A stretch of DNA of 63,839 nucleotides, counting the filler, from Conidiobolus incongruus B7586 (lineage: Eukaryota): the NCBI GenBank assembly GCA_000697335.1. It is 8 parts of 8 records of this genome, joined end to end, with 100 filler letters (N's around TTAATTAATTAA, not from the genome) between each part and the next. Parts side by side here need not be neighbours in the genome. Positions count along the whole stretch, not along the records: positions 1 to 20,734 come from JNEM01006916.1; positions 20,835 to 39,531 come from JNEM01006917.1; positions 39,632 to 47,930 come from JNEM01006924.1; positions 48,031 to 57,899 come from JNEM01006929.1; positions 58,000 to 59,240 come from JNEM01006930.1; positions 59,341 to 61,253 come from JNEM01006931.1; positions 61,354 to 62,720 come from JNEM01006933.1; positions 62,821 to 63,839 come from JNEM01006937.1. One strand, written 5' to 3'. How positions within the stretch are numbered: position 1 is the stretch's first letter; every line of letters starts with the position of its first letter. The translations under genes and the position numbers were made by a program. This document shows, piece by piece, positions 18,310 through 63,839 of this stretch. A model generated the notes under the pieces. That model made no database searches. It saw only the letters and a program-made list of their open reading frames with translations, and was not told the origin of the DNA.

Positions 18310-20495
18310 TTACTCTGGATTTTAAATAATGTGATTTTTTGGAATTAAAAAAATAAGCATTTTAATATATAATTTATAAAAATAAATGCATACAATAAAA
18401 TCAATACTCTCTTTTTTATTAATAACTTTTTGCTATACTTTTAACACTTAAAAAAATAACTCTTTTTATTAAGATTTGAAATTTGATGTTTCACAATATT
18501 AATTAAATTTTTCTATAGAAATTTTCTTTCTTATAAGCTGATTATTTAATAATTTAGAGCAATTATAATTATATAAGTTATAATCTATCAAATATACTAG
18601 ATGTAATAGCTTTTTTAATTATTTTCAATTAGAAAATCTTTTTAAGCCTTTAATTTCTTATATTTTATAACTATCACAAAAAATAATAGATATATTTAGA
18701 TTGTATTAGGAATATTAATTAGAAATAGTTTTATTTAAATAAATATAATATTTATTAATAATTAATTTTCACTCAAATTTTCAATAAAAAAGTATATGCA
18801 ATTATAACCTGATATAATAGCTAATATTCACTTATAAATAAAATATTTATTTAAAAAGATTTACACTAACCTACAAAAGTGAGTCATAAAATCAAAAACA
18901 CTTATATTCTTACTAATAACTTAATTAATATTTAATAAAATAAACCTAAATTAAATAATTAAAATCTATTATATTTATTAGTTATATATATTATTAAATG
19001 ATAATATTTAACTATTAATTGGTTAAAATATAAACCCTTAAATTTTACTCAAGGTGAGTTATAAATTTGTAGGTTTTTAGTGATAAAAAAAATTAAAATT
19101 TAATGTATTTACCTTTAGCTTTACTAACTTCTTTAAGTTTGTAGGGTATAGAATCAACTAACTTTTTATACTAAGAAGGGTTAATCTTATTCTATACTTC
19201 TTAAACATATTTTTAAAATTGATCTAAATTTTTTATTAGGGGGAAAACTTTAATAACTTTTTTTAACTAATTCTAAAGGTGTTTAATTAGATTAAAGTTA
19301 AAAGATTAAAGAAGCTACTTTATAACTATTATCTTGTTATTTTTAAGCTATTTGGTAATAAAAGCTATAGTATAACAAGAGGTATTATCTTGCTAGAAAA
19401 TAACATCAGATTTGTTTAACTTATATTATTCAATGGTTTTTTTCAATTTATTGTTTAGAATACTTTAGTACATTTTGATATTAATTCCTTTATTAACTTT
19501 ACAAAGATATTTTATACCTAAAGATAATATATATCCCTAAATAATAATTAGCCTACTATTATATTTTTGGGTAGAATTAACATAATAGTTATAAAGTAAT
19601 TTTATATTTTTTCTAAAGTATCTAGCTTTTTTATTAAATCTACTAAAGTATATTTTTGTTTCATTAGATTAAATAACCTTACTCTAATTAGTTTTAATTT
19701 AACATTAGTAGCAATATTTAAACTCCCACCTAATTTTACAGTAGGATTTTTTTAATTGGGGGTGTTTTTTCTTAAAGTGTAAGTAATATCTATATTAATA
19801 TAAAACACATATAATAGTATCAGTGCTAACTAATATTCTTATATAATTTTATAGTTCCTGTTGTATTTTTACAGCAATACTATATTTACCTATACTAATT
19901 AACCTATAGATATACTTCTTATTATGTTTATCTATGATTTTAACACACTTAAGTTTAAGTTTAAATGTTTCTTTATTGCTATTCTTAACAACTTTAACTA
20001 TAGTAGACTAGCTAACACTAATAATTCTAGCAATATCACAAGTTGATTTACCTTTTTTATAAAGTTAATTAATACACAAGTAAATTTTCTTAGAGAGGGA
20101 TTTAAGTATAATAATACTAATAAAAAAAATTTAGTATATCTGTAAAATATTATATAAAATAATAACAAAGAGAGAAAAAAGATATGGCTATATATTGTTA
20201 AATATATCCCCTTATCTCAAAAACCCACAAATTTATAACTTACCTTGGTTAAATATTAAAGGTTAATATTTTTGCTAATAGTTTATTAAATATATCTAAA
20301 TATATTTATTTATTATTAAATAATATACCTTAATTATATATTATAGTTTCAAATAATCTAATATATACAATTGTTTTAGTTATTAATTAAAATATATATA
20401 TATTTTTGATTTTATGACTTACTTTTGTGGGTTAGTGTATAAATATAATTATTTTAATTTATATTTTGATAAAGAGATATATATATAAGGATTTA
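18310..20495 (-). mobile_element. Degenerate mariner (DD34D) copy interrupted by a Tc1 element
   Basis: Begins with TIR TTACTCTGGATTTTAAATAATG as at 56615. 18310-18861 aligns with 56615-57185, and similarity resumes at 20440-20495 after the Tc1 insertion. Confidence 0.75.
18864..20437 (-). mobile_element. Full-length degenerate Tc1 (DD34E) transposon, about 1.57 kb, TA target duplication
   Basis: TA|CACTAACCTACAAAAGTGAGTCATAAAATCAAAAA ... TTTTTGATTTTATGACTTACTTTTGTGGGTTAGTG|TA. Transposase relic 20109-19093 (about 339 codons) is an inverted copy of 59952-60966. Confidence 0.9.
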
Positions 20496-20734
20496 ATTAT
20501 AGACTTATATTCTTTGTCTAAATTTTTATAAATTATAGTATAACTTAATTAATTATAAATAAATTTATAATATAATTATTTACTAAAGGTAGACTTTAAT
20601 ATATTTAATTTTTTTATAGTTTTTAACTTAGCTTTTTTTATATATTAAATTTATTAGTTTAATAAATCTAATAGTTATCTATTATAAATATATAATTAAT
20701 TAACTATATCAATTAATTATATAATTTTTGGTTT

Positions 20735-20834
20735 NNNNNNNNNNNNNNNNNNNNNNNNNNNNNNNNNNNNNNNNNNNNTTAATTAATTAANNNNNNNNNN
20801 NNNNNNNNNNNNNNNNNNNNNNNNNNNNNNNNNN
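20735..20834. other. Assembly gap spacer N44-TTAATTAATTAA-N44 (also 39532-39631, 47931-48030, 57900-57999, 59241-59340, 61254-61353, 62721-62820)
   Basis: Identical 100-nt N-padded linker with stops in all six frames; artificial. Each gap abuts recognisable transposon sequence. Confidence 0.97.
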
Positions 20835-23107
20835 AATATAATTTCATTAAAATTAACTAATAAAATATTAATAGATCAATAATAAATAAATATATATTTT
20901 TATAGATTATTAAAGTTTTTAATTAATTTTTTATATTGGTTTTTGTTTATGATAATATAATTATTTAATATAATTATTTAGTTAGTATTAGGTAAAGTAT
21001 TTAGTAGTTTTATAATAAGATAATATAAATTTTTTAAAATTATCTCTATTAATTTCTTTTAGGATATAAAAAAAATAGATTTGTGACTTTTTAAAATAAT
21101 ACTTATAGATAAAATATTATGGTATTTAAACTAATTTTAACCTAATATAAAATTATAACTAATATTATCAACTAGGAATTTTATATATTAAAAATAATTA
21201 AGAAATAGTAATAAATATTTAAATATAATATTAAATACTTATTCCATTAAATTATTAGTATATTTAATTATTAAACTATTTTTTTAGATAGATAAAAATA
21301 GTTTTATAATAATAAAAAAAATAATAAAACTAAAATTATCAAAGTTAATAAAAATATTAACAGGAAAATTTATGAAATATCTAGTTAAAATAAATAATAA
21401 AATAATAGTTAAAGGTAAAAAACTATTAGATAAATTAATTACTAAAATATTTTTAGTTTTTAATGATTTAATTAACTAAATCTCTCTAGTATATATAATT
21501 TAATTTATAGAATAATTGATCTTTTAGAACTTTTGTGGATTAAATTAGAACTTATTTACTAATTATGAAAAAGGTGATTTTAAAGTTACATTAATATTAT
21601 TCAAGTTTTTGTGGTTGGTAAATTAAAATTATTGAAAATTAAATAAATATTGCTTTTTGAAAAAATACTTATTAACTTTGTAATTAACTTAAGTTTTTCA
21701 ACAATAATAGTAACTTTTATTTATTTTTAAATAAACTTTAACTTTTTTATTAAAAGTTTTCTTATAAAATTTTAAAGTTAAAACATCTATTATTTGAAAT
21801 TTAAATAAGTTAGTATAAGTTTTAAAAAATTAATTTTTAAGATAAGAAGATTTAGTTATAAAGTAAAAAATACTATTAATTATAATTACTATATCACAAA
21901 TATTAAAAAAAACATACTATTAAAATGTTCCCTATTAATTAACTAGAGTTTTACTTAAAGATTAAAATACTATAATAACTTATAGATTTATTTTTCTTTA
22001 GTGATATTTAGTATATTTATATATATCTTAATAAATTTCTTAATTAATTATCTTGTAGAAGTTTTTAATTAGAGAAAACTTTTTTTTTGTTAATTAAAAT
22101 TAATCTTTTAAATAATATCTTTCTTTAAAAACTTTTATTAATTATTTAAAGGTTTATATATTTATAGTAAGTTATCCCTTTAAAAACTCTTTAGGATTAA
22201 GTTTATAATAAATTAACTATTAGATATAAGTAGATTTTTCTAGAAAAAATAGTTAATTTAAAGATGTTCTTTAAATCTTTATTAAAAATTAAATTAAGAT
22301 AATTTTTTATATTTTTATGGTTTTTTATAAGCTTGTAAAAATTTTTAAAACTATTATAAATAGTTAATTTGTTTTTAAAGATATTAAAAAGATAATTTAA
22401 TATAATAATTTAGTAAAATAACTAGTTTGTTAGATTTAAGCTTTTTAAGTTTTATTTTTCTTAATCAAAATTTATTTAATATAAGTTTCTTAAAAGATAA
22501 TAAGTTTTTAAAAATTAAAAGCTTAGATTCATTTAGTAATTAAGCTATTATTATTATTAAAATAATATAAGGGTATTTTTTTAATGGAATTATAGTATAT
22601 AATATTAAATTTAAATAAAATAAATTATAGATAAAATTGAAAATAATAATAAATAAGTTTAATATAGATAAATATTAATTTCTAATAGGTTTTTAGTAGT
22701 TTTATTTTTGTTAATATATAAGCATAGTAGTAAATACTATTATAATATAAAAGAAAACTTAATATAAAAGTAATATAACACAGAATATAGTACTATAATA
22801 TAATTATAGCATATAAATATAAACAAAATTTAATTAAGCTTTAAATTAAATTAAGTCACTAATATATAAATATCTATATTAGGTAGTGTTAATATATTAT
22901 AATATTAATAAAATATAGTTTTAATCTTAGAAATAATATAAAAGTAAATAATAATAAGAATTGAAAGGAAAAAAATACCTAGTTTATTAGATAATTCAAT
23001 GTTATTTATATAATTTAGTTATAAAAGTATAAATTAATCAAATAATTTATAATTAATTGAATTATATAAAAGTATATATAAGAATTTAGAGAACTAATCT
23101 CTTAACA
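20835..23107 (-). mobile_element. Degenerate Ty3/Gypsy retrotransposon, 5' part (5' LTR 23107-22717, gag, protease), truncated by a gap
   Basis: Inverted homolog of 39632-41870; the LTR begins TGTTAAGAG at 23107 on the minus strand and matches the LTRs at 42106 and 61354. Confidence 0.85.
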
Positions 23108-25084
23108 ATATTAATATTTTCAAATCTTATTTAAATTATAGAATTTATTTCAATATAAAATTTATAAACTTAAAACCCTTACCTATTGTTTTAAATCAAA
23201 AAGAAAATTATTATATTGTTAAAAAAATCTTATCATATTATAATTATTATAATAAAGACTAATATTTAATTAAATAATTATATTATCCAAAAAAAAACTT
23301 TGCAAAAATTTTAAAAATATAAAAAATATTGATATATTTAAAAAAACTCATAGCTAATAAAAAATTAATTTACTTTGTTTTAATAGTTAAACTAATTCAA
23401 AAAGAATATAAAAAATTGATTTTATAATTTAAATTAAAAATTAACTTAAATATTTTAATAATTATGAAATTAAAATTTAATTATAAATTAACCTTATTTT
23501 TATGATATTTTATATTTATAATATATTAGAATTTATTATATATATTACATATTACTCTAAATATCAAAAAAGTCAAAAAAATAAAAAATCAAAGAATAAA
23601 CCAACTTTCTTATCCTTAAAGTTATTTATTTATATAAAGTGTTCTTTTGAATATATATTATATTATTTAATTAAATGACTGATTTTGTATATAATATCAT
23701 TTAATTTTGAACTAGGTTATATTTTGAATTAATTTAATATTGTTAAAATTAAGTATAAATATATTAAGTTTATTATATTAATTTTGTGATATTTAAATAA
23801 TTTATCAATATTTATAAAATAAAAACTAAATAAAAATAATAATTAATTTTTTTATATTAAATTTTAAAATAGCTCATTGAATTTCTATAATAATTTTAAA
23901 TAAATTAGAACTTAATATTATCAATTTATCCATATGAATACAATTTTTTAATCAAATATCAACATAATTCAATTATGTAATATATAATTATTAAGGTGAT
24001 TTAAAGTTAATAACTAATATGAAATAATTTTTATTTTCATCCCATTATAAAATTACCATTAAATAATATATAAATTATTTATAAATTTTAGGGAATATTG
24101 AAATAAATACACTAAGTTCAATTTTAACATTGTAACAATGCAATACAATTTTATAAATATAATTAATGGTTAATATCCATAATATTTATATGATATTTTA
24201 ACCATTTTATTAATATAAAAAATAAAAAAATTATTTAATAATCTCTTCTTGGGGTTTGTTAATACTGTTTTGAATCCATAATATTCATAAACTTCTATGA
24301 ATATATATGTAGTAACTTGGATTATTCACAACTACCAAATTTTAATATGACAATAACTAAATATTGATTTTCAGTTACATCAATTTCAATTATTGAAATG
24401 AAATTGAAATTAAATTGAATTAATTTCATTATTGCATAATAATTAGAAAAAGAATAATTTTAATTTGTTAAATTTAAATCATAAATTTATTTTAAGAATA
24501 AATTTATAATTGTTGATGGAATGAGCTTTGTACTTAAATTTAATAAGGTATTTTTGTTTTTATTTTGATTAATGCAGTTTATTTTTAGATATCATTTTGT
24601 TCTAACACTATGATTCAAATAGCAAACAAATACTCCAACCAGTTAATTCAATTTTCGAACTAAAATGAATATAAATTCAAATTTCAATAGTTTTTGAAAT
24701 TGATTTGATCTCTATAATAATATTGTATTAAAAATAAACTATTTATTTACATATTTTTAATATTAAAATAATCAAACTTGACTATTGATTTGAATTTTAA
24801 ATAAATTTTTTATTTATAAAATTTAAACAAATTTCCAAATTATAGAAGTTATTTTAATTCATAATTCTAAAATAAATGGAAATGTTATGATTAAAGTATA
24901 ATTGCGCATTATAAAGTTGTAAAATCAAAATTTAACTAATACTTTAAGTGCATAAAATTAAAGTCAAACAAAGATGATGTATAAATAACAAGGAAAAGAC
25001 TACTGAGTTAAGAAATTATATAATTATTCTGATAAAATAAGATTGAAAAAATAATCGAATTACTCTTAATTATATAGCAAAAAG

Positions 25085-25960
25085 ATGCATGGAACATTTG
25101 TGAAATTCCTATTTATTATCTTTTATACTGGATTGATAATATTCAATGTTATACATTATTCAAAACATATTAAAGCTTCACATCTACCGTTCAGTCAGTC
25201 AACCGAAAAGATCGAAATTACGAAGCACATATGGCAGACCTCACCACATAAGGTAAATGAGAAGGTTCTCAAGCTGATGAATAAGTGGAAGGAAGTTCCT
25301 GACTGGGAATATGACTACAAGTCAGAAGATGATATAAAAAAATATTTGAAGGAGCAATATCCTGAAATCAAAATTGATAAAGTATTTGAACAACGTCCAA
25401 TTATGGCCTATGATTTATTTCGATATTCCATTATCTATAATGAAGGTGGTCTTTATACAGATTCAGATATTGAAAAAGCTGCCGAATTTGAAGACACTTT
25501 ACAACACTTGAGCCAGTGCAACGTCATTGTGGGAGTTGAAGCGGATCTTAGAGATCGTGGCAAATGGTATGTTGGTAGATTCTCTAGAAGCCTACAACTG
25601 TATCAGTCGTCATTCTACTCCTCACCAAAGCATCCTCTAATGAAATTTGTTATACTTAGAGTGCTAAGACAACTTGACTACTACCTCGCGCGCGAAAAGA
25701 ATCTGAGAGATGAAGATGTAATGGAAGTAAGTGGCCCTGGAATTTGGACGGATGCCATTCGGGACTATATCTCCATGACAACTGGAGTGGACTTTTATGA
25801 CCAAATCAATTGTGGTAAATCATACAAGTTTAATGACGTGTGTATACTGAATGTTAAAGGATTCGCTCTAAGTATGCCTCATTCATGTCATAACGAAACG
25901 GACTCTGATACATTTATAGTTAATGTACGTCACTTTTTAGGCTCTTGGAAACATGAATAA
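25085..25960 (+). CDS. Glycosyltransferase family 32 (OCH1/HOC1-like mannosyltransferase), copy 1
   Basis: N-terminal type II TM anchor, KHIWQT, DLFRYSIIYNEGGLYTDSD (DxD), SGPGIWTD, HFLGSWK. Confidence 0.9.
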   Translation: MHGTFVKFLFIIFYTGLIIFNVIHYSKHIKASHLPFSQSTEKIEITKHIWQTSPHKVNEKVLKLMNKWKEVPDWEYDYKSEDDIKKYLKEQYPEIKIDKVFEQRPIMAYDLFRYSIIYNEGGLYTDSDIEKAAEFEDTLQHLSQCNVIVGVEADLRDRGKWYVGRFSRSLQLYQSSFYSSPKHPLMKFVILRVLRQLDYYLAREKNLRDEDVMEVSGPGIWTDAIRDYISMTTGVDFYDQINCGKSYKFNDVCILNVKGFALSMPHSCHNETDSDTFIVNVRHFLGSWKHE

Positions 25961-27061
25961 TCGTTTTGAATATTTAATGGTATAAGTTTTTAGATTATCT
26001 AATATAAAGTCAATATTGATATTGTCATATGAAAATATATCATTGATTATCAACCAAAATTTATAATAAATAATAATTCATGAATATAATTAGAATGCTT
26101 TACAATATAGCATCTTATATATTTTATGATGTATCTAGATCAATCATGTCAAAAATAGTTGAACTATATAACTGCGTTTTTATAGTTAATATTCCTTGTA
26201 TTTATTCTATATTTATAATATTATTGCCATTCAACTAAAGAATTCTCTCAACTGTAGAGCATACACTGCTATGCAATTGGATTAATCTTTCTCATCTCTA
26301 TTTATATTAATTATCTATCCACGAATCATAAGGTATAGATATGAAAAATAAATTCAACCTCAGGCAAAATCATAATCTACCTAAATAATTTACCTTTATA
26401 GATTTACAGATTTTAGATTAGTAAATAGGCTATTAAACTTATATAATTTCCTAAAAATTTGAAATATTAATGATTCAAATTTTTAAATTTTTAACATTGA
26501 TAATTTTATGTATTTGATGAATTAAATATGAAAAAAATTCAAATAAATATATATATGATCAATAAAAAATATGTTTCTATATTCTTATTTTAGTTAATTT
26601 ATTTTTAAAAATATAGCTTGAATCATTTAACACCAATTATATCAATTTGTTTTATTGATTTAATTTTTTTTCAATTATAAGGAATAAAGAAAATAAAATA
26701 ATAAAAATTTACTTAATGCAAATTGATCATTTTGGTAATATTTTTATTCTAATATAAACTTAACTATTAAATTACATTTGTATTAAAATAAGATTGAAGT
26801 AAAATTCAAATATATATATATATATATATTGTGAAATTTTACAAAAAGTTATAGTATTATAGAAAAAAACAATCATTATTTAAAATGACTTTTAATTATA
26901 TATGAAAATATAAATTATTACTCAAGGAATTATATATAATATATTTTTGATTTTATAATTATTAAAAATTTTAGTAAAAAAGTTTCTTATTTTATTAAAT
27001 AATAAGAATCAAATAAAAATATTTAAAATCCACCATCTATTATTAACCATTATTTCATCTA

Positions 27062-28375
27062 TTAATGTTGAAATTAAATAATAACATAATTTTGAAACTA
27101 AAATTAAACAAATAAATTAATAAATAATATATAAAAATTAAAAAAATAATATAAAATTAATAGCCTTTTTTATTATTAATAACTTTTTTCTATATCTTTA
27201 GTAATCTTTTAATACTTAAAAAACAGTCCTTTTTATTAAAAACTAAAAATTAATATTTCACAAACTAATTTAATTTGTTTGCAAGAATTTTTTTCTTGTA
27301 AGTTATTTTTATAATTATCTAAAACAATTATAATCATAAGGTTATAATTAAGTGAATATACTAGATATGGTAATTCTTTTTAATTTTTTTATATAAAAAA
27401 TCTTTTACAGCTTTAACTTCATATATTTTTGTAATTATCATATAAAATAATAAGTATTTTTAATTTATATTAAAAAAATCATTTAGAAATTATTTTATTT
27501 AAAAGGGTAATATATAATTTGTTTTTAATTAATTATCCTTAAGATATTAAATAAGAAAATCATATATATTATAATCCATTACAATAACTAATATCCGCTT
27601 ATATTTAAAATATTTGTTTATTGGAATTTATAGAGGGGATTGATTTGGCTTAACCTAACATCTTGTTTTATTTTTAGGTAAAGGATTATATAAAGAAATT
27701 TAAGATTCATCAATTATAAATATTTATTATAAAAACCTTTATCTTTGGTTATACCTTAATAAGTTTAATTTAGTTATAACTACTATAGTTTTCTTTTAGG
27801 CTTTTGTTAAATAATAAGGTATTGATTTTATATTTTTATTAATTAATCTAAATTTAAACTTAAGTAAATATAACATGCTTTTATAATTAATATTAAATTG
27901 TTTTAATAATTCTTTAACAAAAATAAAAAGGTATTTTTTAATATATTTTTTATTTTATTAGTAAGTTAAAAACTAACAATAGAAATTAATCTTTTAGATT
28001 TTATTAAATTTTGAATAATATCCCTTCTAGCTTTAAAATCACAAATCTAGTAATATATGGTAATTTTAGATAAAATATTATCTCTATAAGCTATTTATAA
28101 GTTTTAAATGATTTTAGAGGGTTTATGGTTAAATTTTGAAAATATAAAAATAAAAGTCTTTTGATAATCATAATCTAATTGAAATATGATTAAATTTAAA
28201 TATAAATTTTAAAATCAGAATATTTTAATTAAAAAAATAAATAAAGTTCAATATATATATAGTTTGAAAATATTTATTTTCCTATATATTTTATATATAA
28301 AAAATCTTTCAAAATATATAATATATTTGAAAAATCAGAAATTAAAAATTTGTTATTTTTTAATCTTCATATTAA
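27062..28375 (-). mobile_element. Full-length degenerate mariner (DD34D), about 1.3 kb
   Basis: Colinear with 43943-45224 over its whole length; TA-flanked TIRs TTAATGTTGAAATTAA / TTAATCTTCATATTAA. Confidence 0.85.
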
Positions 28376-28599
28376 TAGTATGGAAATTAACTAATTGATT
28401 CAAGAATTAAAATAATAATTATATAAAAAGAATACTAAATTAATATAAAACTTGTATCGATAATATTCCATATAAATCAATATATATAAATTATTAATAA
28501 ATTTATTTTATGTCTAAATATTAATAAGCTTTGAGTATTATATATTCAGATTTTTCCATTATGATAAATTATGAATTTTATTCAAAATTTTAAAATATT

Positions 28600-29780
28600 A
28601 GTAAAGAAATAAAAATGATAAATTTTTTAATTTTTAAATTTCCAGAAATATTATTAGTTTAAATAATATTATATATAAAAAATATATATAATTTAATATT
28701 TTCAATCTATATAATAATTATGAGTTTCTTATTTAAATATTATTAAAACCTAACTATAAATTTTATAAAATCATTTGAAATTATAAATAATTAATAAAGA
28801 TTAAAATTTATTTAAATCTACCAATTATTGTTAAATTTGTTATTTTAATACTAATAGGGATATATTTAAAATTTATTAAAATTTAAAAAATTAATTAATA
28901 TTAATATTTTTCCCTTTATATAAAAAATAAACAAAATATTATAAAATAAACTTTTATCTTAGCTAAAAGACTATTAAGATGGCTTAATTTAAAATATACA
29001 AGTAAATTATATATATTATAGTTTAAGTTTGGTATAATTAATAGAATATTTAAAATAAATATTTTATAATTTAAACAGGGTTAAGTGAATAATTAAAGTA
29101 ATTAAAATTCAAAAATAACTATTTATAAATTACTAAATATATAAGAATTATATTAAATCATAATAATTAATAAATTATAAACTTATTTGTATAAATTTAT
29201 AATTAAAAACAAAACTAAATATTAAGTCAAACTAAAATAATCCATTTTATAGATTTTAATAAATAAATATTTTATTTATAAATGAATTTTAATTATTATA
29301 TTATTTTATAATAAAATAAAAATTTTTATTTAATTTTTAATAATAAATCTATTGATAACAAGCTATGTTTTTTTAATAACATTATTTCTAATTATTGATT
29401 TATTATAAATTAAGGATATCTATTATTTTATATAATATTTGCAAAATATATATTCTTAAAGCTATAAATTTTTTATCAAAAATTACAGAAAACTACCACA
29501 TTTAGAAAATGAACTAGATTATAACCCATTTAATTATTATTACTTTGGACAATTAAAAGTTATACTTTTATGAAAAAAAATTCATATAAACAAATTTAGT
29601 TAATTTGTGAAATATTAATTTTCAAACTTTAATAAAAAAACTAATTATTTAATATTAGAAGTTTACCAAATCTATAGCAAAAAATTATTGATAATCAGAA
29701 ATAATATTAATTTTATTTTATTTATTTAATTATGATTTTAAAATTTTTCATTATTTAATTTTTGTAATAAAAATAATTAT
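28600..29780 (+). mobile_element. Heavily degenerate mariner copy in opposite orientation (boundaries approximate)
   Basis: About 29494-29560 reads LPHLENELDYNPFNYYYFGQLK (family HPxYSPDYNPCDYNCFGQLK); the 5' part resembles the reverse complement of 57400-57880. Confidence 0.6.
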
Positions 29781-30386
29781 ATTAAAATCTTTTTTATAAT
29801 TAAAATAAATTCATTAAAAATATTTGGAATAATTTAAATTAAAACTAATAGAATAATTCTATAAAATTTATATTAATTAATTAGTTTTTCTAGCACTGAT
29901 TAACGAGAAAAGATTCAACAATTATTAAGGACAATAAAACTATAGATAGATTAATATATTTTAATAAATTTTATTTATTTTAATATCTTTTTCTATTCAC
30001 CAAATCCAATCGAATAAAATATATAACATGGCTATTTCTTTTATATGCAATTCTTGTTGATATATTCATTGTAATATATCTTTTATTTTTTTTCTTTCAA
30101 TAAATCACTAATTTCATTAACAATTTATTATATTCAATTTTTAATTATATGATATTAAATTTACCAATTTTTTACATAATCATTTACATACAGATAAATG
30201 CATTATTTGCATTAATTTCAAATTTATAAATATAGAAATGAATTTAATTAGCATTAATTGTTTTTAAATCCATATTCTTTCATTTATTAGACTAAAACAA
30301 TATTGCATTTTACAAGGTTAGAATATAAATAAATTATTAAGAAATCTTGTTCAAATGGTTTATTAACTATTCAAAAAATATATATA

Positions 30387-31280
30387 ATGTTATATAAAGA
30401 AATCAAAATCGAATTCAAAATGTTAAAATTTTTACTTATCTTTTTCTTCGCAGGATTAATTATATTTAACTTACTTTACTTTGCAAAGTATAAGAGAGTT
30501 TTGAGTTTGAGTATTCCGAATGATAAGCCTGTTGGAATTAAACAACAAATATGGCAGACTGCTCCTGCTAAAGTTGATAAGAAGATTCATAAACTTATGA
30601 ATATGTGGAAAAACGTCCCCGGTTGGAAATATAATTTCATGAATGACGATCAAGTTAAGCAGCATTTGGTTGAGCACTATCCTCAGATCGATTTTGATAA
30701 GGTATTCGAACAGAGAGCCATTCTCGCTTATGATCTCTTTCGTTACTCCATCATCTATCACGAAGGTGGACTTTATGCTGACTCGGATATTGAAATCGCT
30801 TCAGAATTCCATGACTCCATGAATCGCTTGAAAGAATGTGGTGTCATTGTTGGTATTGAAGGGGATGTGAGAGATCGTGGTAACTGGTACCTTGGAAGAT
30901 TACCAAGAACCCTTCAGCTTTGTCAATGGTCATTTTATGCAGCGCCCAAGCATCCTGTGATGAAACTTGCAGTTGATAGAGTAGTAAGGCAAATTGATTA
31001 CTATCTCGCGCGAGGTAAGAATCTCCACGACCAGGATGTTATGGAAGTATCAGGGCCAGGTATTTGGTCAGATTCCATAAGAGATTATGTCTCTGTTACC
31101 ACTGGCATCGATATTGTTGAATATATGAAATGTGGGAAGTCTTATAAATTTAATGATGTCTGTATCCTAAATGTCAAGGGATACGCACTTACTATGCCTC
31201 ACTCATGTGGAAATGAAACTGACTCCGACACCTTTATTATTGACCTTCATCATTTCTTGGGATCTTGGAAGCACGATTAA
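30387..31280 (+). CDS. GT32 mannosyltransferase, copy 2
   Basis: QIWQT, GGLYADSD, SGPGIWSD, HHFLGSWKHD; possible start at the second Met (30420). Confidence 0.9.
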   Translation: MLYKEIKIEFKMLKFLLIFFFAGLIIFNLLYFAKYKRVLSLSIPNDKPVGIKQQIWQTAPAKVDKKIHKLMNMWKNVPGWKYNFMNDDQVKQHLVEHYPQIDFDKVFEQRAILAYDLFRYSIIYHEGGLYADSDIEIASEFHDSMNRLKECGVIVGIEGDVRDRGNWYLGRLPRTLQLCQWSFYAAPKHPVMKLAVDRVVRQIDYYLARGKNLHDQDVMEVSGPGIWSDSIRDYVSVTTGIDIVEYMKCGKSYKFNDVCILNVKGYALTMPHSCGNETDSDTFIIDLHHFLGSWKHD

Positions 31281-33535
31281 TTCATTGTGATTATTTGTTT
31301 TATTGAATGGTATTTTAATTAGTTGAACTCACATTGATATTATACAAATACACTATAAAAACTAAAATAAATAATTCAAATAATAAACTCTCAATATTAA
31401 ATAATTTAATTCAAAATTATGAATATATAAAAATGAAAAATAACTACTGGATATTAAAAAGAATTTTATTTTATATCCAAATACCATATGCTTAATAAAA
31501 AATCCATTTATTAATAATATATAATTTAATATTATTAAATATCTGATTATTTCTTTGAAAAATAATCAAATTAAGAAATGAAAATAATATTTCCATAGTT
31601 TTGAAAATAAATATATTCTTTAAATAATATCGGTATGATATGGAAAAAGAATAGAGAAATTGATAGTCTTCGCTTTATAGCCAAATTATTTTGTTTTGAT
31701 CTTATTATTTATAAGTTTTAAAGATAACTTGATAAATATTTATTCAGAATAAGAAAATACCGTCAACTTTTTATTTATTCTGACTATCCCCTATTCATTA
31801 ATACTAAAGCATTAACCAAATAATGTAATAAATGAAAATCTGTTAATTTTTGATATAATAATTTACATTGAATATTCTAAGAATTGTTTTTAGTGTCATG
31901 ATAAAGCTTTAATGAATTTCAAAAATATATATTGTAGTATTTATAATTAATATATTACATTCTTGTAGTTGATTTGAATTATATAATATCTTCACAGTTT
32001 ATATTTAAATCCCAATATTTATTTGAAAACAGTCATAAAAGAGATAACCAATATAATAATTTTAAAAATATATTAATATAAAATACAAATACTTGGTTTA
32101 TATAAAAATTAAAATCATTAGCTTCAGATAAAATTTCAAATAAATGTAATAGAAAATTTTAACATGTTGCTTTTCAAATAATATATATTATTCACTACCT
32201 TAATAAACATTCAAAAATATTAACCATAATAGGTTATATAATAAAAATCACTTTAATAAAATGGTTTAAAACTAAAATATAGATTTATAAAGTTGAATTA
32301 AGCATTTAGATAAGTTCTATCTATATTTAATTGAAATTGGAATTAAATTTATAATACTATATCACTAAACTGGGTCAATTTAAAAATATTGAGGAATATT
32401 ATTGAAAAACTATTTAAAATAATATTTCATAAATAGTATAATTATAATTTAAAATAGTTATTTTATAAATTTATTATTAATGATCTAATTTTGAGCAAAT
32501 TTAACATTTAATAACTTGGAGTGTTTCAAATTAACTTGAGCAAAATGTTTTTTCAAATTCAAATTATTGCCCAGTAATTTTTAATAGTACTGTTCTATTA
32601 TAAATTGATCAATTAATTCAAATCAAAATGGGTAAACTAGAGAACTAATTTTTATCAATGTAAAATCAATTTTGAAACCTGGTAATTAATATTAATGTAA
32701 ATTGTATTGTAAATTTGTAGAATGTTTATAATCATCTTCAATTAGAGTATCAGTAATTCTTTTCATATTGTATATTTGATATTAAGATACTCTTTCTATT
32801 TGATGAAAATAAAATCAAAATCAAAATCAGGATACTATATATATTTGATATCAAGTAAACGATTTAATTTAAATAGTTATATAAGTTATATCGAAATCAA
32901 AGTTAAAATGGTAAAGATACCCCTTTTTTCTTGTTCAATAGGTATAAAGAAGAATTTATATATTATTATATTGATACCACAAAAATCACTTTGAATAATC
33001 AAGTTTTATAAAGGATACTTCGTTATTTATTTCTACTTAGTATAATAAAATATTATAGAAAATAAAACATTTCTATATATCAAATTGTAAATAACTAAAG
33101 ATAATAAACTAGAAATCAAATAAAATTGAATAAAATATGAATTTAAGAGATAAAACAAGAAACACAAAATTGATGAATTTTTTACAAACTGAATGATCTA
33201 TTACCAACAAATGGTGATCAAACTATACAATCATCAAAATTCAAAATATATTATTGTAATGAACCAGTGAAAATGATTTTAATTAATCATGTTAATATAT
33301 GACAAGTGATTAAATTAAATAATAATAATTTAACAATTTTTTACTAATTTATTGAAATTGATTTTTCCATAAAAATAAATGAATAGCCATAAGATTTCTT
33401 AATCTACCAAATATATATAAAATTAATAAAGCATTATAATATATAGAGGTTAGTTCAAATTGATACTGATTAGTATTAGATTCAATTATGATAAAAATAG
33501 CTAAGGAAATATAAATTATATATATTACAATTAAA

Positions 33536-43940: not shown

Positions 43941-43942
43941 TA

Positions 43943-50689: not shown

Positions 50690-51765
50690 AGTCTTTGTTA
50701 TAATTTTGACCAATTTCTAATATTTAAAAATTAGTTTTATTATTAAAAAATAAAATTTTATCCTTGAAATAATTAATTAATAGTATTTACTAAAATCTTT
50801 TTTATTATAAATTTTATTATCCAAAGCAATTATAATTATACAGGCTGAAATTTAGTAAATTTATTAAATATTTTTGCATTATTACATTTCTATTAAAAAA
50901 ATTTTTAAACTTCTATAATAAAATAATATATATATATATATATAATTTTTAGAAATAATTAAAAATTGTATTATAAAATATAAAGTATATTATTAATTAA
51001 ATTATATCAAAGGAATAGTTAAGGAAACTATAAACTATTATAATATATATAGATACTAAATATTTATGAATAAAAATAACCCTTATTTATTGGAATGTGT
51101 AAAAAAATATTTTAATTTAATATGATATCTTCTAACAAAGGATCATAACTAGAAATTTAAGACTGATTATTATTGATTTATAAAGTGTTGATGTTTAGTT
51201 CTATTTTTAGAAGTTTAATTTAGTTATAATTATACTCAGTTTTTTAAGCTTTAGTTGAATCATAGGTATTTATTGAATATTGATATCAAATTAATGGAAA
51301 TTTTAATATATATATTGTATGTTTATAATTAAGATTAAAATATTATATTAATTTTTTCGATTATAGAAAATATATACTTTTAAATATATTTTTTATTCTT
51401 TTGAATACAGAAAATTAAAAATAAAATTTTATTATAATTTTCAGTTAATAAACTTAGGGATAAATATTAGTTTTATACAGAATAATATCTTTATACACTA
51501 ATTTGAATTTAAATTGTTTTATAAGTTTAAAAGTTAAATTTTAATAATACCCAAATAAAAACATTTAATAATCAATATTTAATTTAATTATAATTAAATT
51601 CAATATTAAATTTTTAAATGAAAATATATAATGACAAAAGCTATTTATTAATGGGTATATATTTTTAAATTATAAATCATCTTATTTCTGTGTATATAAT
51701 TTATTTTTTAAAACTAGTTGTACATCTAAATAATTAAAAATTAAAATTTATAATTTTTTCTCAAG
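50690..51765 (-). mobile_element. Highly degraded mariner copy (boundaries approximate)
   Basis: ttatccaaagcaattataattat (about 50818) and the downstream blocks parallel 56866-57880. Confidence 0.55.
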
Positions 51766-55055: not shown

Positions 55056-56312
<1,257 letters not shown>

Positions 56313-56614
56313 ACTATCATTTGTAACTGATGATATTATAATAATAGACTAGCAGACAGCATATTATTTAATTAATATTTAGAATAGTTTCAATTGTTTT
56401 TTATTGTCTATATAACTTTATTTATAAATATTATATAATTTATCATACATATAGATATTTAGAATATTATTGAACTTAGTTTATTCACTAATTTGGGCAT
56501 CACTATATCATTTTTACTCATTCAAAGTTCATTTTCAAGCATATTTAATTATAATTTAATTAAATTTAATAAATATAAAATTTATTAAATTTTCAGATGA
56601 TCTTTGTATTAATA

Positions 56615-57899
56615 TTACTCTGCATTTTTAATAATGGGAATTTTTTGCAATTAAAAATAAATAAACATTTGAATATATGATATATAAAAATAAATATATA
56701 ATATAAATTTAATAGTTTCTTTTATTATTAATAACTTTTTGCTATATTTTTAACAAACTTCTAACACTTAAAAAACAATTCTTTTTATTAAAAACTGAAA
56801 TTTGATGTTTCACAAACCAATTAAATTTTCCTGCAGAAATTTTCTTTCCTGCAAGCTGGTTTTTTAATTACCTAAAGCAATTATAATCACATAGGTTATA
56901 ATCAAAGGAATATACTAGATATAATAATTTTTTCCAGTTATTTTTAATTAGAAAGTTTTTTACAACTTTAGATTTATGTATTTTATAATTATCATGTAAA
57001 ATAATAGGTTTTCTCAAATTATATTGAAAACACCAATTAAAAATACTTTTATTTAAAAAAATAATATATAGTTTATTATTAATTGATTTTCCTTCAGGAA
57101 CTAAATAAAAATAATATATACTATTATAATCTATTATAATAATTAACATTTACTTATTAACAAAATGTTTATTTAAAGGGATTTGTAGAAAGGGTTAATT
57201 TAACTTAATCTAGCATTTTGATTTGTGTTTTAGTAAAAGATTATATATAAAGATTTAAGATTCATTAATTATAATTATTCATTGTAAAAGTTTAAGCTTC
57301 TAGTAATATTTTAATAAGTTTTGTTTAACAATAACTACTCTAGCTTTTTTTAAGCTTTAGTTAAATTATAAAATATCTATTTTATATTTTTATTTATTAA
57401 TTTTAGTTTAAACTTTAAAATATATAAAATACTTATAAAACTAATATTAAAGTACTTAGATAATTCTCTAACTAAAATAAAAAAGTACTTTTTAATATAT
57501 TTCTTTATTTTATTTACAATTGAAAAAATAATAGTTAAAGTTAATTTTTTAAATTTTAACAGGTTTTAAATAATTTCTTTTTTAGTTTTAAAATAATTTA
57601 CCTAGCAATAAATTGTTAATTTAGATAATATTTTATTATTAAAAACTACTTGTTAATTTTAAATAATTTTAAAGGGTTTATAGTTAAGTTTTATTAATAC
57701 CAAAATAAAAAACTTTTGATGATTACTATTTAATTTAAACATAATTAAATTAAACAACTAATTTTAAAAAATTATTATATATATATTAAAAATATATAAT
57801 TTCTTATTAACTTTATATATATTTATTTATTTCAAACTAATAATATGTTTGAAAAATCAGAAATTAAAAAATTTCCCATTATTTTAAATTCAAGGTAAT
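56615..57899 (-). mobile_element. Full-length degenerate mariner (DD34D), second subfamily, about 1285 bp
   Basis: TIRs TTACTCTGCATTTTAATAATGGGAA / TTCCCATTATTTTAAATTCAAGGTAA. ORF 56868-57149 has LHDN...YSFDYNLCDY with 34 residues between the two Asp. Confidence 0.9.
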
Positions 57900-57999: not shown

Positions 58000-58332
58000 T
58001 AGGCATAATGATACTAATAAAAAAAATTTAGTATATCTGTAAAATATTATATAAAATAATAGCAAAGAGAGAAAAAAGATATGGTTATATATTGTTAAAT
58101 ATATCCCCTTATCTCAAAAACCTGCAAATTTATGACTCACCTTGGTTAAATATTAAGGGTTAATATTTTTGCTAATAGTTTACTAAATATATCTAAATAT
58201 ATTTATCTATTATTAAATAATATACCTTAATTATATATTATAGTTTCAAGTAATCTAATATATACAATTGTTTTAGTTATTAATTAAAATATATATATTT
58301 TTGATTTTATGACTCATTTTTGCAGGTCAGTG
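58000..58332 (-). mobile_element. Tc1 terminal fragment (least mutated copy), truncated by a gap
   Basis: Nearly identical to 20103-20437; keeps the transposase ATG CCT (58006) and TIR ...ATGACTCATTTTTGCAGGTCAG TG|TA. Confidence 0.9.
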
Positions 58333-58899
58333 TAGTTAAAAATTATAATATTTTTTTTGGAAATATTTAATTTTAGAATTATTAAGATATATTATTATAT
58401 AATTATATTAAATATTTCTAATTAAGTTTAATATTATTCTAATAGTAATATATTAATATTAATTCAATCCAATAATATGATTTTTTTAATTATCAAATTT
58501 TTTATATATAGATAATATTTATATTAAAATAAAACATAATTTATAATATTAATTTTAACTTTTTTCTATCAATAATTTTATAATTGATTTTAATAATATT
58601 ATAGTATTATAATATTATAATATTGATTTTTATTAACTTATTTTTGAATATATTATTTATAATTTATATTTTTAATTTTAATATATATTATGTTTCAAAA
58701 ATAAGTCATAAAATAAAACATATTTATTTTTTTTTATTATTTTCTTTATTAATTTTTATTCTAATATTTATATAATATATTATGTTATTAATATACTATG
58801 TTATTAATATTTATTTTTTATTTGTAAAATCTTATATAGAGTTATATTAAATCAGTTATTATAATATATATTGAAGTTAAAAATATATTTAATATATGT

Positions 58900-59623
58900 T
58901 ATAAATTTGAAGGTTCTAATATTAATAAAAAATTTAATATCTAATATATCTATCTTTTGTTTTTTAGTTATTTTAAGTTTAAAAGAAATAGAGTTAATTA
59001 GCTCCTTATATTAAACAAGAATAATATTATTCCAAGCTTCTTAATTATATTGTTAAAGTTGATTTAAATATTATATTAGAGAAAAAACTTTAATTAGTAT
59101 TCTTAATTAATCTTAAAAATATTGAATTAAATAAAATTAAAAAATTAAAGGGGTTATTTTATAATAATTATTTTGCTATTTTTAAGTTATTTAATAATAG
59201 AAATTATGATATACCAAGGAGTATTATTTTATTAAAAAATNNNNNNNNNNNNNNNNNNNNNNNNNNNNNNNNNNNNNNNNNNNNTTAATTAATTAANNNN
59301 NNNNNNNNNNNNNNNNNNNNNNNNNNNNNNNNNNNNNNNNTATAGGTTAATTTATTTTTATGAAAAAATAATTTTTATATATGTGTATTTTTTTATTAGG
59401 AGATTTAATTATTATAGTATTTATTTTAAAATATCAGCTTAAATATTTTATAGTATATATAATATAATAAAAAAAAATTAGATATATAAAAGTTTTGTTT
59501 TTTATACCATATTTATTTATAAACCCATAAATTTATAACTTATCTTAGTTAAATTTTAGGTTTTGATATACCTATCAATAATTAATAAAATATAATTAAA
59601 TATAGTTAGATATAATTAACAAA
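58900..59623 (-). mobile_element. Related Tc1 subfamily copy spanning a gap, interrupted by the 59626 element
   Basis: 58950-59240 parallels 19100-19400; inner repeat AAATTTATAACTTATCTTAG at about 59529. Confidence 0.6.
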
Positions 59624-59625
59624 TA

Positions 59626-61195
59626 TAATAACTTATAGAAATAAGTTATAAAATCAAGAATTATATATATTTTAATTAATAATTAAAACAATTATATATA
59701 TTAAATTATCTGAAACTATAATATATAATTAAGGTATATTATTTGATAATAAATATATATATTTAAATATATTTAGTAAATTATTAGCAAAAATATTAGC
59801 CTTTAATATTTAACTAAGGTAAGTTATAAATTTTCAAATTTTTAAAATAAGGGGATATATTTAACAATATATAACCATATCTTTTTTCTCTTTTTGCTAT
59901 TATTTTATATAATATTTTACAAATATATTATATTATTTTATTAGTATCATTATACTTAAATCTCTCTCTAAAAAAATTCACTTATATATCTATTAATTTA
60001 AAAAAAGATAAATCAACTTATGATATTATTAGAACTACTAGTGTTAATTAGTTTACTATAGTTAAAATTATTGAAAATTATTATAATAACATATTTAAAC
60101 TGAAATTTAAATATTTTAAAATTATAGATAAATATAATTAGAGATATATTTATAGGTTAGTTAATATAAGCAAGTGTAATCCTATTATAAAATATAACAG
60201 GAATTATAAAACTATATCAAAGTACTAGTTAATATTAATACTATTATATATACTCTATATTAATATAGATATCACTAATATTTTAACAAAAAACACCCCT
60301 AACTGAAGAAATCACATTGTAAAACTAAGCAAGAATTTAAATGTCATTATTAATATTAAAAACTAAACTTAATTATAATATAGTTATTTAATATAATAAA
60401 ATAAAAATATATTTTAATAAATTTGATAAAATATTTAGATATTTTAAAAAGGATGCAAAATTACTTTATGACTATTATGTTAATTTTACCCAAAAGTACA
60501 ATAATAGGTTAATTATTATTTAAGAATATATATTATCTTTAGGTTTAAGATATCTTTATAAAGTTAATAATGGAATTAATACTGAGATATACTAAAATAT
60601 TCTTAACAATATATTGAAAAAAACTATTGAATAATATAGGTTATACAAATCTGATGTTATTTTCCAGTAAGATAATGCCTTTTATTATACTATAGCTTTT
60701 ACTACCAAATAGCTTAAAAATAACAAGTTAATAGTTATAAAATAGCCTCTATAATTTTCTAACCTTAATTTAATTGAATATTTTTGATATTAGTTAAAAA
60801 AAGCTATTAAAGTTTTTTTTCTAGCAAAAGATTTAAATTAATTTAAGAATATATTCAAGAAGTATAGAACAAGATTAACCTTTTTTAGTGTAAAAATTTA
60901 GTTGATTCTATACCACATAAACTTAAAAAAGTTAGAAAAGCTAAAGGTAGATACACTAGGTTTTAAAATTTTTTATCACCAAAAACTTACAAATTTATAA
61001 CTCACCCTAGGTAAAATTTAAAGGTTTATATTTTAACCAATTAATAGCTAAATATCATCATTTAAAAATATAAATAATTAATAAATATCATAGATTTTAA
61101 TTATTTAATTTAGGTTTATTTCATTAAATATTAATCAAGTTATTAGTAAAAATATAAGTATTTTTGATTTTATGACTTATTTTTGTAAATTAGTG
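59626..61195 (+). mobile_element. Full-length degenerate Tc1 (DD34E), 1570 bp; transposase relic 59952-60966
   Basis: Reverted translation: QKYGGGS...WGC, IFQQDNAPCH (D at 60671), WPPQSPDLNPIE (E at 60776; 34 residues between), KAKGGYTRF*. TA-flanked TIRs. Confidence 0.92.
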
Positions 61196-61353
61196 TATAT
61201 ATTTATTATAAATTATATAATTTATATATATTTATTATATATAATATTTTATANNNNNNNNNNNNNNNNNNNNNNNNNNNNNNNNNNNNNNNNNNNNTTA
61301 ATTAATTAANNNNNNNNNNNNNNNNNNNNNNNNNNNNNNNNNNNNNNNNNNNN

Positions 61354-61709
61354 ATAATCCAATTAACTATAAATTATATGATTAATTTATACTTATGTAG
61401 TTAAATTAATTGTATAAATAGTATTAAATTATCTAATAAACTAGGTTCCTCTTTTTCTCTCAATTCTTACTATTTTTTACTTTTACACTATTTCTAAGAT
61501 TGAGACTATATTCTGTTGATATTGTAGGATATTGGCACTACCTAATATAAATCTTAATATATCGGTGACTCATCCTAGTTCGAAGCTTAATTAAACTTTG
61601 TTTACACTTGCACGCTACAGCCACGTTATATTACCACGTTCTGCGCCACACTACTTTTATATTAAGTCTTCCTCTGCACTATATTAGTTTAACTACCACT
61701 ACGCTTACA
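61354..61709 (+). mobile_element. Gypsy-family LTR (3' or solo), least mutated copy, left end lost in a gap
   Basis: Ends CACTACGCTTACA; colinear with 42150-42504 and 39632-39980; not followed by the PBS/gag junction. Confidence 0.88.
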
Positions 61710-61899
61710 ATTTATATTTTCTTTAATCAATAGATGAAATAAATAATAAATTAAATTAAAATAATATCTATTATAATAATTTTAAATAAATAAATATAAT
61801 ATTGGTAATTAAATTCTGGTTATTATAAAAAACTATAATAATATAAAATCTTATTTAATTTTTATCTTTTAAATATATTATATATTTTGAAATAATTTT

Positions 61900-62720
61900 T
61901 TATTTATAAAATATATTGGGAAAAAATTTTTTTCAAACTATATATATATATATTTAGTTTTTATTATTTTTTTTATCAAAATATTTTTATTTTGAAATTT
62001 ATAATGTAATTTAATTATATTTCAACTAAATAGTGATTATCAAAAGGTTTTTATTTTTATATTTTTAAAATATTACCATAAATCCTTTAAAATCATTTAA
62101 GACTTGTAAATAACTTATAAAGATGGTGTTTTATCTATAACCACCATATATCACTAGATTTGTGATTTTAAAGTTATAAGGGATATTATTTAAAATTTGC
62201 CAAAATTTAAAAAATTAATCTTTATTATTATTTTTTCATTTATTAATAAAATAAAAAAATATATTAAGAAATAGCCTTTTATTTTGGTTAAAAAATTATC
62301 AAAGGAATTTAATATTGATTATATTAACATATTATATATATTTAAGTTTAAAATGAAATTAATTCATAAAAATACAAAATAAATATCTTAAAATTTAATA
62401 AAAGCCTAAAAGAAAATTATAGTATTTATAGCTAAATTAAATTTATTAAGATATAACCTAAAACAAGGGTTTTTATAATAAATATTTATAATGAATAAAT
62501 TTTAAATTCTTTTATATAGTCTTTTATTTAAAAATAAAATAAGATATTGGGTTAAGTTAAATTAATTCTTTTTATAAATTCCAATAAATAAATATTTTAA
62601 ATATAAGTAAATATTAATTATTATGATAGATTATAATGATATATGGTCTTTCTATTTAATATCTTAAGAAAAATTAATTAATAATAAATGATATATTATT
62701 TTTTTAAATAAAATATTTTC
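61900..62720 (+). mobile_element. Degenerate mariner, N-terminal part of the transposase, truncated by a gap
   Basis: Reverted translation: LS.TTVYRWI.DFK...DLPRSGRP, KNARWIPQNLTEAQK (WVPHEL equivalent), TMDESWI. Confidence 0.85.
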
Positions 62721-62820
62721 NNNNNNNNNNNNNNNNNNNNNNNNNNNNNNNNNNNNNNNNNNNNTTAATTAATTAANNNNNNNNNNNNNNNNNNNNNNNN
62801 NNNNNNNNNNNNNNNNNNNN

Positions 62821-63839
62821 TTTATAAGATAGTTAATATAAATAAATATAATATTATTATAGAAATATAAAAAAATTATAAAATTATATAAGAATATTAT
62901 TTAATATTAATACTATTATATATATTTTATATTATAATAAATATCATTTGTATTTTAAAAAAAAACACTTTTAATTAAAAGAGTCTTATTATAAAGTTAA
63001 ATAGGAGTTTAAATATCACCATTGAAGTTGAATTAAAGTTAATTAAAATAAAGTGATTTAGTTTAATAAATTAAAAATATATTTTAATAAATCTAATAAA
63101 AAAGCTAAAAATTTTAAAAAAGATTAAAAATTACTTGATAACCATTATATTATTTTAACTTAAAAATATAATTATAAGTTAATTATATTTTAATGATATA
63201 AATCATCTATTAATATTAAATATCTTTATAAAATTAATAATGGAATTAATATTATAATATAATAAAAAAATCTATACAATAAATTAAAAAAACTATTGAA
63301 TAATATAAGTTAAATAAACTAGATGTTATCTTTTAATAAGATAATATATTTTGTTATATTATTATTCCTATTACCAAATGATTTAAAAATAATAGAATAA
63401 TAGTTATTAAGTGGTTTTTTTGATCTTTTAATTTTAATCTAATTAAATATCTTTAAAATCAATTAAACAAAATAGTTAAAGCTTTCCTATTTATAAAAAA
63501 TTTAAATAAGTTTTAAAAATATATTTAAGTAACTTAAAACAAAATTAATCCTTTTTAATATAAAAAGTTAGTTAACTTTATACCTGATAAACTTAAGGAA
63601 GTTAAAAAAGCAAAAGATAGATATACTAAGTTTTAATTTTTTTCCATAACCAAAATATATAAATTTATAACTTATCTTGAGTAAAATTTAAATCTTAATC
63701 TATTAATTAGAAATTAATATAATTTGATTAAATATATTTAATTATAAATAAATAATATAAGTCTATTATATATTTTAATTTAAATTAATTTAATTAAGAA
63801 TTAACAGAGTTATTGATAATCATTTATATAGTCATAATT
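62821..63839 (+). mobile_element. Degenerate Tc1 copy (transposase C-terminal part and inner repeat), running off the window
   Basis: Parallels about 60150-61150; ends KAK(R)YTKF* at about 63635; inner repeat AAATTTATAACTTATCTTGAG at 63661. Confidence 0.8.

Follow-up and report, generated by a model that had tools for sequence, protein, structure and literature searches.

A strong transposon-confined C-to-T mutator footprint in a Conidiobolus genome, apparently RIP-like in outcome

In Neurospora crassa and other Pezizomycotina, RID-dependent repeat-induced point mutation (RIP) leaves dense C:G-to-T:A change that is confined to repeats, falls on both strands and keeps reading frames and element ends. 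RIP acts premeiotically, is triggered by homology and proceeds in episodic, strand-biased bursts. We describe a footprint sharing these repeat-confined, two-stranded, frame-keeping features in a stretch of 63,839 nucleotides, filler included (the window), joined from eight records of the Conidiobolus incongruus B7586 assembly (GCA_000697335.1), where it is carried by Tc1, mariner and Ty3/Gypsy transposons at positions 18310-63839. The likeness to Neurospora extends to Trp and Gln codons turned into stops, to depletion of CpA and to a positive composite RIP index. Unlike in Neurospora, CpG is affected here at least as much as CpA, CpT is substantially affected, CpA is favoured only among non-CpG contexts, no strand clustering was found, and the host lies outside the Dikarya. 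Judged from the sequence, this is a real and strong, transposon-confined C-to-T mutator footprint in a non-Dikarya fungus, RIP-like in its outcome and lacking the CpA-first preference of RIP.

Papers are cited here by PubMed Central (PMC) number, and statements about them refer to the portions of text that were available. The Dim2 mutator of Zymoseptoria tritici resembles the Conidiobolus footprint in confining C-to-T change to transposons and in loss of CpA; it acts in mitosis, was proposed to operate without need for a sexual cycle, and differs in being an ascomycete system in which more than 98% of changes are at CpA and CpG is spared, whereas the present pattern wipes out CpG and extends to CpT (PMC8016269). 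TpCpG hypermutation in Pucciniomycotina also strikes CpG strongly in transposons, and it too is read from alignments only (PMC3318451). Unlike that process, the Conidiobolus pattern combines heavy CpA and CpT loss with no preference for a 5' T at testable non-CpG sites: the 5' base has little effect, being nearly flat (0.36-0.46) at surviving sites, and the CpGs that remain are too few for the TpCpG trinucleotide. Zoophthora radicans and other Entomophthoraceae share with the window the order Entomophthorales and a positive composite RIP index; that signal consists of dinucleotide indices only, from giant genomes and with stated caveats (PMC11105155), whereas direction, context and restriction are obtained here by alignment and in the Conidiobolus lineage.

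Three repeat families occupy about 22.5 of the 45.5 kb of the range (self-BLAST, approximate mask). Translations with X at each stop were compared with solved structures, and in a single frame each the Tc1 copy matched the Sleeping Beauty transposase (E 2.6e-18), the mariner copy the Mos1 transposase (E 1e-11) and the Gypsy element the Ty3 reverse transcriptase (RT; E 7e-11). This bears out three unrelated families, as proposed in an earlier reading of the same DNA (the sequence-only reading), and both DNA strings quoted there were located, a 12-nt RT-motif string at 42854 and a 45-nt Tc1 string at 60743. Among 24 X-translated frames compared with Pfam, every match fell under the curated cut-off (for example Retrotrans_gag, E 0.016). 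With the X-translated Tc1 query, a word-indexed search gave 0 matches from 1777 candidates and an exhaustive search gave 935 proteins at E<=0.001. Depth of contigs assembled from the same sample runs from thousands to 200,000 on the repeats and from 14 to 230 on a unique gene, so the families are highly repeated, although these depths over-weight shared words and are not copy numbers. The copies were said to have few indels. This is true of the younger pairs, with 2-10 gap openings per 0.3-1.8 kb, but not of two old mariner copies, whose alignments to other long copies open 14-30 gaps and contain numerous A/T transversions. Element ends were said to be kept; one Tc1 copy has a TA flank with imperfect terminal inverted repeats (TIRs) of about 220 nt and one solo long terminal repeat (LTR) has a 5-bp target-site duplication, but mariner TIRs are weakly alignable. 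Several copies are interrupted by assembly gaps or nested insertions.

Differences between copies are dominated by transitions. Pairs were scored with a mismatch scheme without transition preference. Of 14 pairs that diverged by less than 18.5% or consisted of LTRs, 13 had a transition to transversion ratio (ts/tv) of 2.9-18 and one had 1.9. By family, ts/tv in the closer pairs was 5.2, 10.3 and 18 for Tc1, 5.0, 2.6 and 1.9 for mariner, 4.1 for the Gypsy internal region and 2.9-8.5 in all six LTR pairs. Distant copy pairs (20-40% different) gave only 0.2-1.9, with numerous A/T transversions. At fourfold sites of four tandem glycosyltransferase paralogs, which are partly saturated, ts/tv was 0.22-0.81 and A/T transversions were the most frequent class in all six pairs. 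When ts/tv and context were set against single-copy DNA, transition excess and CpA depletion were found in repeats only. The description of the copies as stripped of C and G is right as far as composition goes (repeats 13.9% GC), but low GC is no marker by itself, since putative introns also stand at 14% (non-repeat stretches, which contain unannotated exons and a tRNA, reach 19.9%). What discriminates the repeats is dinucleotide context and substitution type, not low GC.

The direction of change is seen most clearly against P0122, the closest intact Tc1 relative (35% identical, E 4e-56), with which the copy at 18862 aligns gap-free over 331 codons. C-to-T and G-to-A changes alone account for 109 of the 215 differing residues (mean 33 and maximum 45 in 300 shuffles), the reverse change for 10, and C-to-A/G-to-T for 23 (mean 38 in the shuffles). 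Each of the 10 Trp positions is now a stop, in agreement with the claim that many Trp codons had been lost in this way, and none of 7 Met survives. At positions where the P0122 residue demands a given base, T or A stands at 116 of 205 C/G and G or C at 15 of 235 A/T; three Tc1 copies have each lost 60-80% of the demanded C/G. Sister Tc1 copies carry discordant TAG and TGA stops at the same Trp, which shows independent hits in separate copies. A strand-symmetric, non-reversible fit gave C-to-T at 0.11-0.72 per site, 5-64 times T-to-C and 16-45 times T-to-A, in four of four transposon sets; the same fit on third positions of the GT32 genes (248 sites) was uninformative (twice the log-likelihood difference, 2.8).

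Context was measured on the lightly mutated LTR at 61354-61709, the one common reference for three comparisons with sister LTRs. T was read in the sisters at 31 of 40 CpG (78%), 58 of 79 CpA (73%), 52 of 122 CpT (43%) and 14 of 35 CpC (40%), while in reverse only 21 of 703 comparisons at T gave C. When same-sample contigs were aligned to this LTR, 31 places reached at least 10% variant depth; 25 of them are C-to-T or G-to-A, and these 25 lie at 10/14 CpG, 8/28 CpA, 5/45 CpT and 2/12 CpC. Most of its C/G positions are below 10% variant depth, which suggests that lightly mutated LTR copies coexist with ruined ones, although depth weighting favours shared words and the LTR, adjoining a gap, may be a collapsed assembly. 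Two runs from another organism bearing the same species label gave 0 contigs on this LTR and are no evidence either way. Across five copy pairs CpA was hit above CpT (p 8e-7) and above CpC (p 2e-12), and 534 of 554 still-segregating differences with a shared 3' base were at CpA and CpT. On both strands the contexts thus rank CpG >= CpA > CpT >= CpC, unlike the CpA-first pattern of Neurospora. Strands were about equally affected in 11 of 12 directional comparisons, in keeping with the earlier statement that both C-to-T and G-to-A occur inside each copy. Same-strand clustering appeared in 0 of 12 tests (p 0.17-1.0); many rounds of mutation would erase it. Passive decay of 5-methylcytosine (5mC) from CpG to TpG would likewise yield complete loss of CpG but not the loss of CpA and CpT just given, nor a CpA/CpT ratio of 0.50 in transposons against 1.48 elsewhere; because most segregating differences are at CpA and CpT, methylation under passive decay would need to be dense outside CpG.

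Restriction to repeats was examined in 200-bp windows below 20% GC, which replaced the first noncoding controls because these held a tRNA and probable exons. Transposon windows (n=79) have a CpG observed/expected ratio (o/e) of 0.06, CpA/CpT of 0.50 and a composite RIP index of +0.41; non-transposon windows (n=62) have 0.45, 1.48 and -0.66. The CpA contrast (p 5e-54) is present in four of four GC bands, and edges of the index are sharp at most element borders. In single-copy coding sequences CpG and CpA survive (o/e 0.75 and 1.17), as had been reported for the neighbouring genes, while transposon classes have CpG o/e of 0.00-0.18. If mutation were AT-biased throughout the genome, plain neutral decay would account for the 14% GC of putative introns, for the closeness to that intron value of the equilibrium GC fitted to Tc1 and mariner (0.08-0.15), and for CpG that is low (o/e 0-0.26) in the most AT-rich non-transposon windows too. 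GC-matched non-transposon DNA lacks the CpA depletion, which already contradicts this explanation. The low ts/tv at the partly saturated paralog fourfold sites also speaks against it, as does a stretch of 331 codons with 0 frameshifts although about 60% of C/G is gone; we regard neutral decay as very improbable, and genome-wide AT drift, named earlier as a potential refutation, does not apply. CpG loss extends past recognisable copies and CpA loss does not. The further suggestion that the mutator largely explains the AT-rich intergenic DNA does not hold: CpA/CpT is still 1.5-1.6 in non-transposon windows with 12-20% GC, and the putative introns (451 bp, boundaries by eye) are without signature at CpA/CpT 1.12. 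Since equally AT-rich non-transposon DNA lacks the signature, the mutator is not the cause of most of it. An orthologous neutral control was also sought by scanning metagenomes for the HMT1 locus of a close relative; the matches listed, at least 80, were distant loci (best 69% among them) and were left unused.

Three other segments touch on this restriction. Beside a Gypsy LTR, 1.4 kb at 23120-24500 contains 0 CpG (5.5 expected) with a normal CpA/CpT of 1.48, and is possibly an old relic or CpG-only spreading. The segments at 48800-50250 and 52100-52640 are GC-richer, without long open reading frames (ORFs), and keep CpG (o/e 0.63) and CpA; they are possibly decayed genes.

An assembly or sequencing artefact would be in line with the many gaps inside repeats of the window. 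Separately assembled same-sample contigs nevertheless repeat the spectrum against positions 39632-47930, with at least 1378 transition and at least 190 transversion places in run X2 and at least 1325 and at least 170 in X1 (public runs of one sample, probably the window's own and not independent; the counts include a transporter gene of the major facilitator superfamily, MFS). The changes also follow codon identity and dinucleotide context, so that an artefact is barely credible.

The reading we favour, with a probability of roughly 0.6, is that a methyltransferase-linked mutator of silenced transposons lies behind the C:G-to-T:A change on both strands. A cytosine methyltransferase on silenced repeats is suggested because the order CpG >= CpA > CpT >= CpC holds on both strands and in DNA transposons and the retroelement alike. 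A DIM-2/DNMT1-type enzyme would mark the DNA of silenced transposons whatever the context, with CpG marked most, CpA next and CpT and CpC last. Marked cytosines on both strands would be converted to thymine after insertion, by spontaneous or enzyme-driven deamination and in mitosis or in the sexual stage. We infer the involvement of 5mC and the methyltransferase, as well as targeting by silent chromatin, not by DNA-DNA pairing. A genome defence linked to methylation probably left this footprint. Precedents are Dim2-dependent mitotic C-to-T change in Zymoseptoria repeats (PMC8016269), 5mC in Phycomyces, which occurs in repeats alone and in CG and CHH contexts, with 5mC in repeats mentioned also for the zoopagomycete Linderina (PMC11258239), and PF00145 methylase genes in all entomophthoralean fungi of one data set (PMC11105155).

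True RIP outside the Dikarya, with homologous pairing in the zygospore stage and bursts of mutation by a RID-like or DIM-2 enzyme preferring CpR, is possible though on the unlikely side. It would explain a very heavy C-to-T load in intact frames, strong CpA depletion with a composite index positive only in transposons (0.41 vs -0.66) and sharp-edged at most borders, one strand-biased copy, and a lightly mutated LTR beside heavily mutated ones; in addition, Zoophthora radicans has a RIP index of 24.2% and Entomophthoraceae have candidates of RID architecture (PMC11105155). It is opposed by CpG being affected at least as much as CpA, by the absence of same-strand clustering in all 12 tests, and by a RID-sister orthogroup that lists no Neoconidiobolus protein in the available part of PMC11105155. 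The homology trigger is cited as at least 400 bp and at least 80% identity (PMC6572847). As probes of such a trigger, the GT32 paralogs are at or below this threshold, and the MFS gene (MFS/TRI12-like, efflux-type, in two ORFs in this assembly at 45700-47333) has counterparts in the same sample that are 86-90% identical over pieces of 315-342 nt. It keeps CpG and CpA (CpG o/e 0.51, RIP index -0.71), which would argue against RIP, although the test is not clean because its fourfold C/(C+T) is the lowest of 8 genes (0.22 vs 0.31-0.44). A homology-triggered Conidiobolus RIP without a RID orthologue and preferring CpG and CpA is a doubtful variant; if true, repeat-directed mutagenesis would predate the Zoopagomycota-Dikarya split or have re-arisen on a DIM-2/DNMT1-type enzyme. 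Of the earlier claim of a homology-triggered mutator or a methylation-deamination defence, the repeat-restricted, directional C-to-T/G-to-A change in a non-Dikarya fungus is supported; the homology trigger stays putative, and the context order is unlike Neurospora RIP.

Editing of transposon DNA or retrotransposon cDNA by an AID/APOBEC-like deaminase could produce C-to-T change in many contexts and one strand-biased LTR. Such deaminases read the 5' base. Here the preference is at the 3' base and not at the 5' base, DNA transposons are as heavily affected as the retroelement, and strands are about equal in 11 of 12 comparisons, all of which makes a deaminase quite improbable.

Several points weigh against the methyltransferase-linked mutator or the evidence for it. 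Naive parsimony with a mutated outgroup gives T-to-C above C-to-T (97 vs 25 in Tc1, 73 vs 50 in mariner), a reversal that we attribute to parallel C-to-T change in the outgroup because the P0122 comparison and the LTR reference give the opposite direction. Losses common to sister Tc1 copies number 80, with 66 predicted under independence over 167 sites, so that inheritance or site heterogeneity may account for some of the load. The solo LTR at 42148, one of the 12 comparisons, is strand-biased (C 17/59 vs G 24/34, p 0.0002), which is easier to reconcile with an episodic, RIP-like event than with steady decay. The context order leans largely on one 350-bp LTR beside a gap, possibly a collapsed multi-copy assembly. 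The Zymoseptoria Dim2 mutator spares CpG, unlike the Conidiobolus pattern (PMC8016269), and 5mC is scarce in Zoopagomycota according to PMC11258239.

The host was placed by a tree of the HMT1 main exon, a single gene, with 38 rows including 37 proteins hand-picked from 121. The window and C. coronatus form one group (94% identity over 262 columns, support 100/98), and an Entomophthorales clade (support 100/99) encloses the window HMT1, apart from Pezizomycotina. The top match is a protein whose cluster includes Conidiobolus coronatus KXN72172.1, and the top named match is Neoconidiobolus thromboides at 76%. By this gene the host is thus a member of Conidiobolus that differs from the C. coronatus record, and not an ascomycete, so that its apparent position outside the Dikarya is upheld and the objection that a Pezizomycotina host would make this ordinary RIP falls away.

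Transposon copies and control genes are listed in Table 1. Beyond the range, a Gypsy-LTR-like fragment at 400-620 has a few CpG left (by eye). Seven sites in 20735-62820 are assembly gaps, each with paired N runs flanking a constant 12-base linker, and all seven are in or beside repeats; the linker stems from scaffolding and has no biological meaning. Genes of the window comprise a P-type ATPase, a DDB1-type protein, four DXD glycosyltransferases, the MFS transporter and HMT1/PRMT1. The P-type cation ATPase (5219-8467, 1082 aa, without introns) presumably resembles Na,K/H,K-ATPase. A tRNA-Ala(TGC) gene lies at 9962-10035, and an ORF of 258 aa at 11353-12129 probably begins with a signal peptide, contains a (GGDD)n repeat and a Gly/Tyr/Asp-rich tail, and has no Pfam match.

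Table 1. Transposon copies and control loci in the window
Feature	Position	Strand	Evidence
Mariner, partial copy, abuts Tc1 element	18304..18861	-	self-BLAST 69-77% to other mariner copies; 0 CpG
Full-length Tc1, ~220-nt imperfect TIRs, TA flanks	18862..20437	-	transposase frame without indel breaks, 21 stops in aligned part
Ty3/Gypsy fragment: LTR (about 22712-23116) and gag-side internal region, gap-cut	20835..23116	-	85% to 39632-41873; internal ts/tv 4.1
Control: four tandem DXD glycosyltransferase paralogs, no signature	25070..37037	+	67-80% identical, open frames, PF04488 on scanned copy
Mariner copy	27060..28364	-	86% to 43938 copy, ts/tv 5.0
Older, more decayed mariner, opposite orientation	28413..29818	+	self-BLAST
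Mariner fragment, gap-cut	39107..39531	-	self-BLAST
Ty3/Gypsy: gap-truncated 5' LTR, gag-like region, RT/RNase H; split by solo LTR	39632..43900	+	Retrotrans_gag E 0.016; Ty3 RT E 7e-11
Solo LTR, same Gypsy family, nested in 39632..43900 element	42106..42503	+	5-bp target-site duplication read from flanks
Mariner copy	43938..45225	-	self-BLAST
Oldest mariner relic, abundant indels and A/T transversions	50624..51759	-	self-BLAST
Control and taxonomic marker: HMT1/PRMT1	55056..56259	+	HMT1 tree
Mariner copy with recognisable DDE domain	56610..57899	-	Mos1 E 1e-11
Tc1 end fragment	58000..58334	-	against 18862 copy: 18 transitions, 0 transversions, 327 sites
Older Tc1 fragment	58668..59240	-	self-BLAST
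Tc1 copy containing motif quoted at 60743	59598..61195	+	against 18862 copy: 197 transitions, 38 transversions
Lightly mutated Gypsy LTR, 28% GC, 7 CpG, adjoins assembly gap; internal reference	61354..61709	+	CpG o/e 1.0
Mariner copy, gap-cut	61835..62720	+	self-BLAST
Divergent Tc1 copy	62821..63839	+	about 80% loss at residue-demanded C/G sites

In the published record, the RIP index covers 24.2% of the Zoophthora radicans genome and is low in other Entomophthoraceae, and the same paper describes RIP as previously observed in Dikarya only and reports methylase domains for every fungus that it covers (PMC11105155). According to a 2025 survey, which took in about 1,200 genomes, RIP-like signatures occur in ascomycetes only; 8 of 8 listed Zoopagomycota are scored there as 'no_rip', including C. 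coronatus, whose assembly has 6.4% annotated repeats (PMC12543289). The available text of PMC5751038 names no zoopagomycete carrier of Masc1/RID, and in chytrids no RIP was found according to the parts seen of PMC6572847 and PMC9926174. DIM-2 and DNMT1 have been placed in early-diverging fungi, with 5mC in repeats (PMC11258239, PMC7862722, PMC13297926). No alignment-based report of a C-to-T process in Conidiobolus was found in the literature searched, most subscription papers being outside reach. The novelty proposed by the sequence-only reading holds for alignment-level evidence in a non-Dikarya lineage but was somewhat overstated, a RIP-index signal having been published for the same order (PMC11105155).

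The window offers alignment-level evidence for a strong transposon-confined C-to-T mutator in the Conidiobolus lineage, at odds with PMC12543289 and foreshadowed in Entomophthorales by the 2024 index-only suggestion of PMC11105155. A likely reason why k-mer screens can miss the signal is that AT makes up about 85% even of the unique noncoding DNA, and that the copies have decayed so far. Conidiobolus grows in culture, and the footprint makes testable whether a RIP-like defence needs RID and meiosis.

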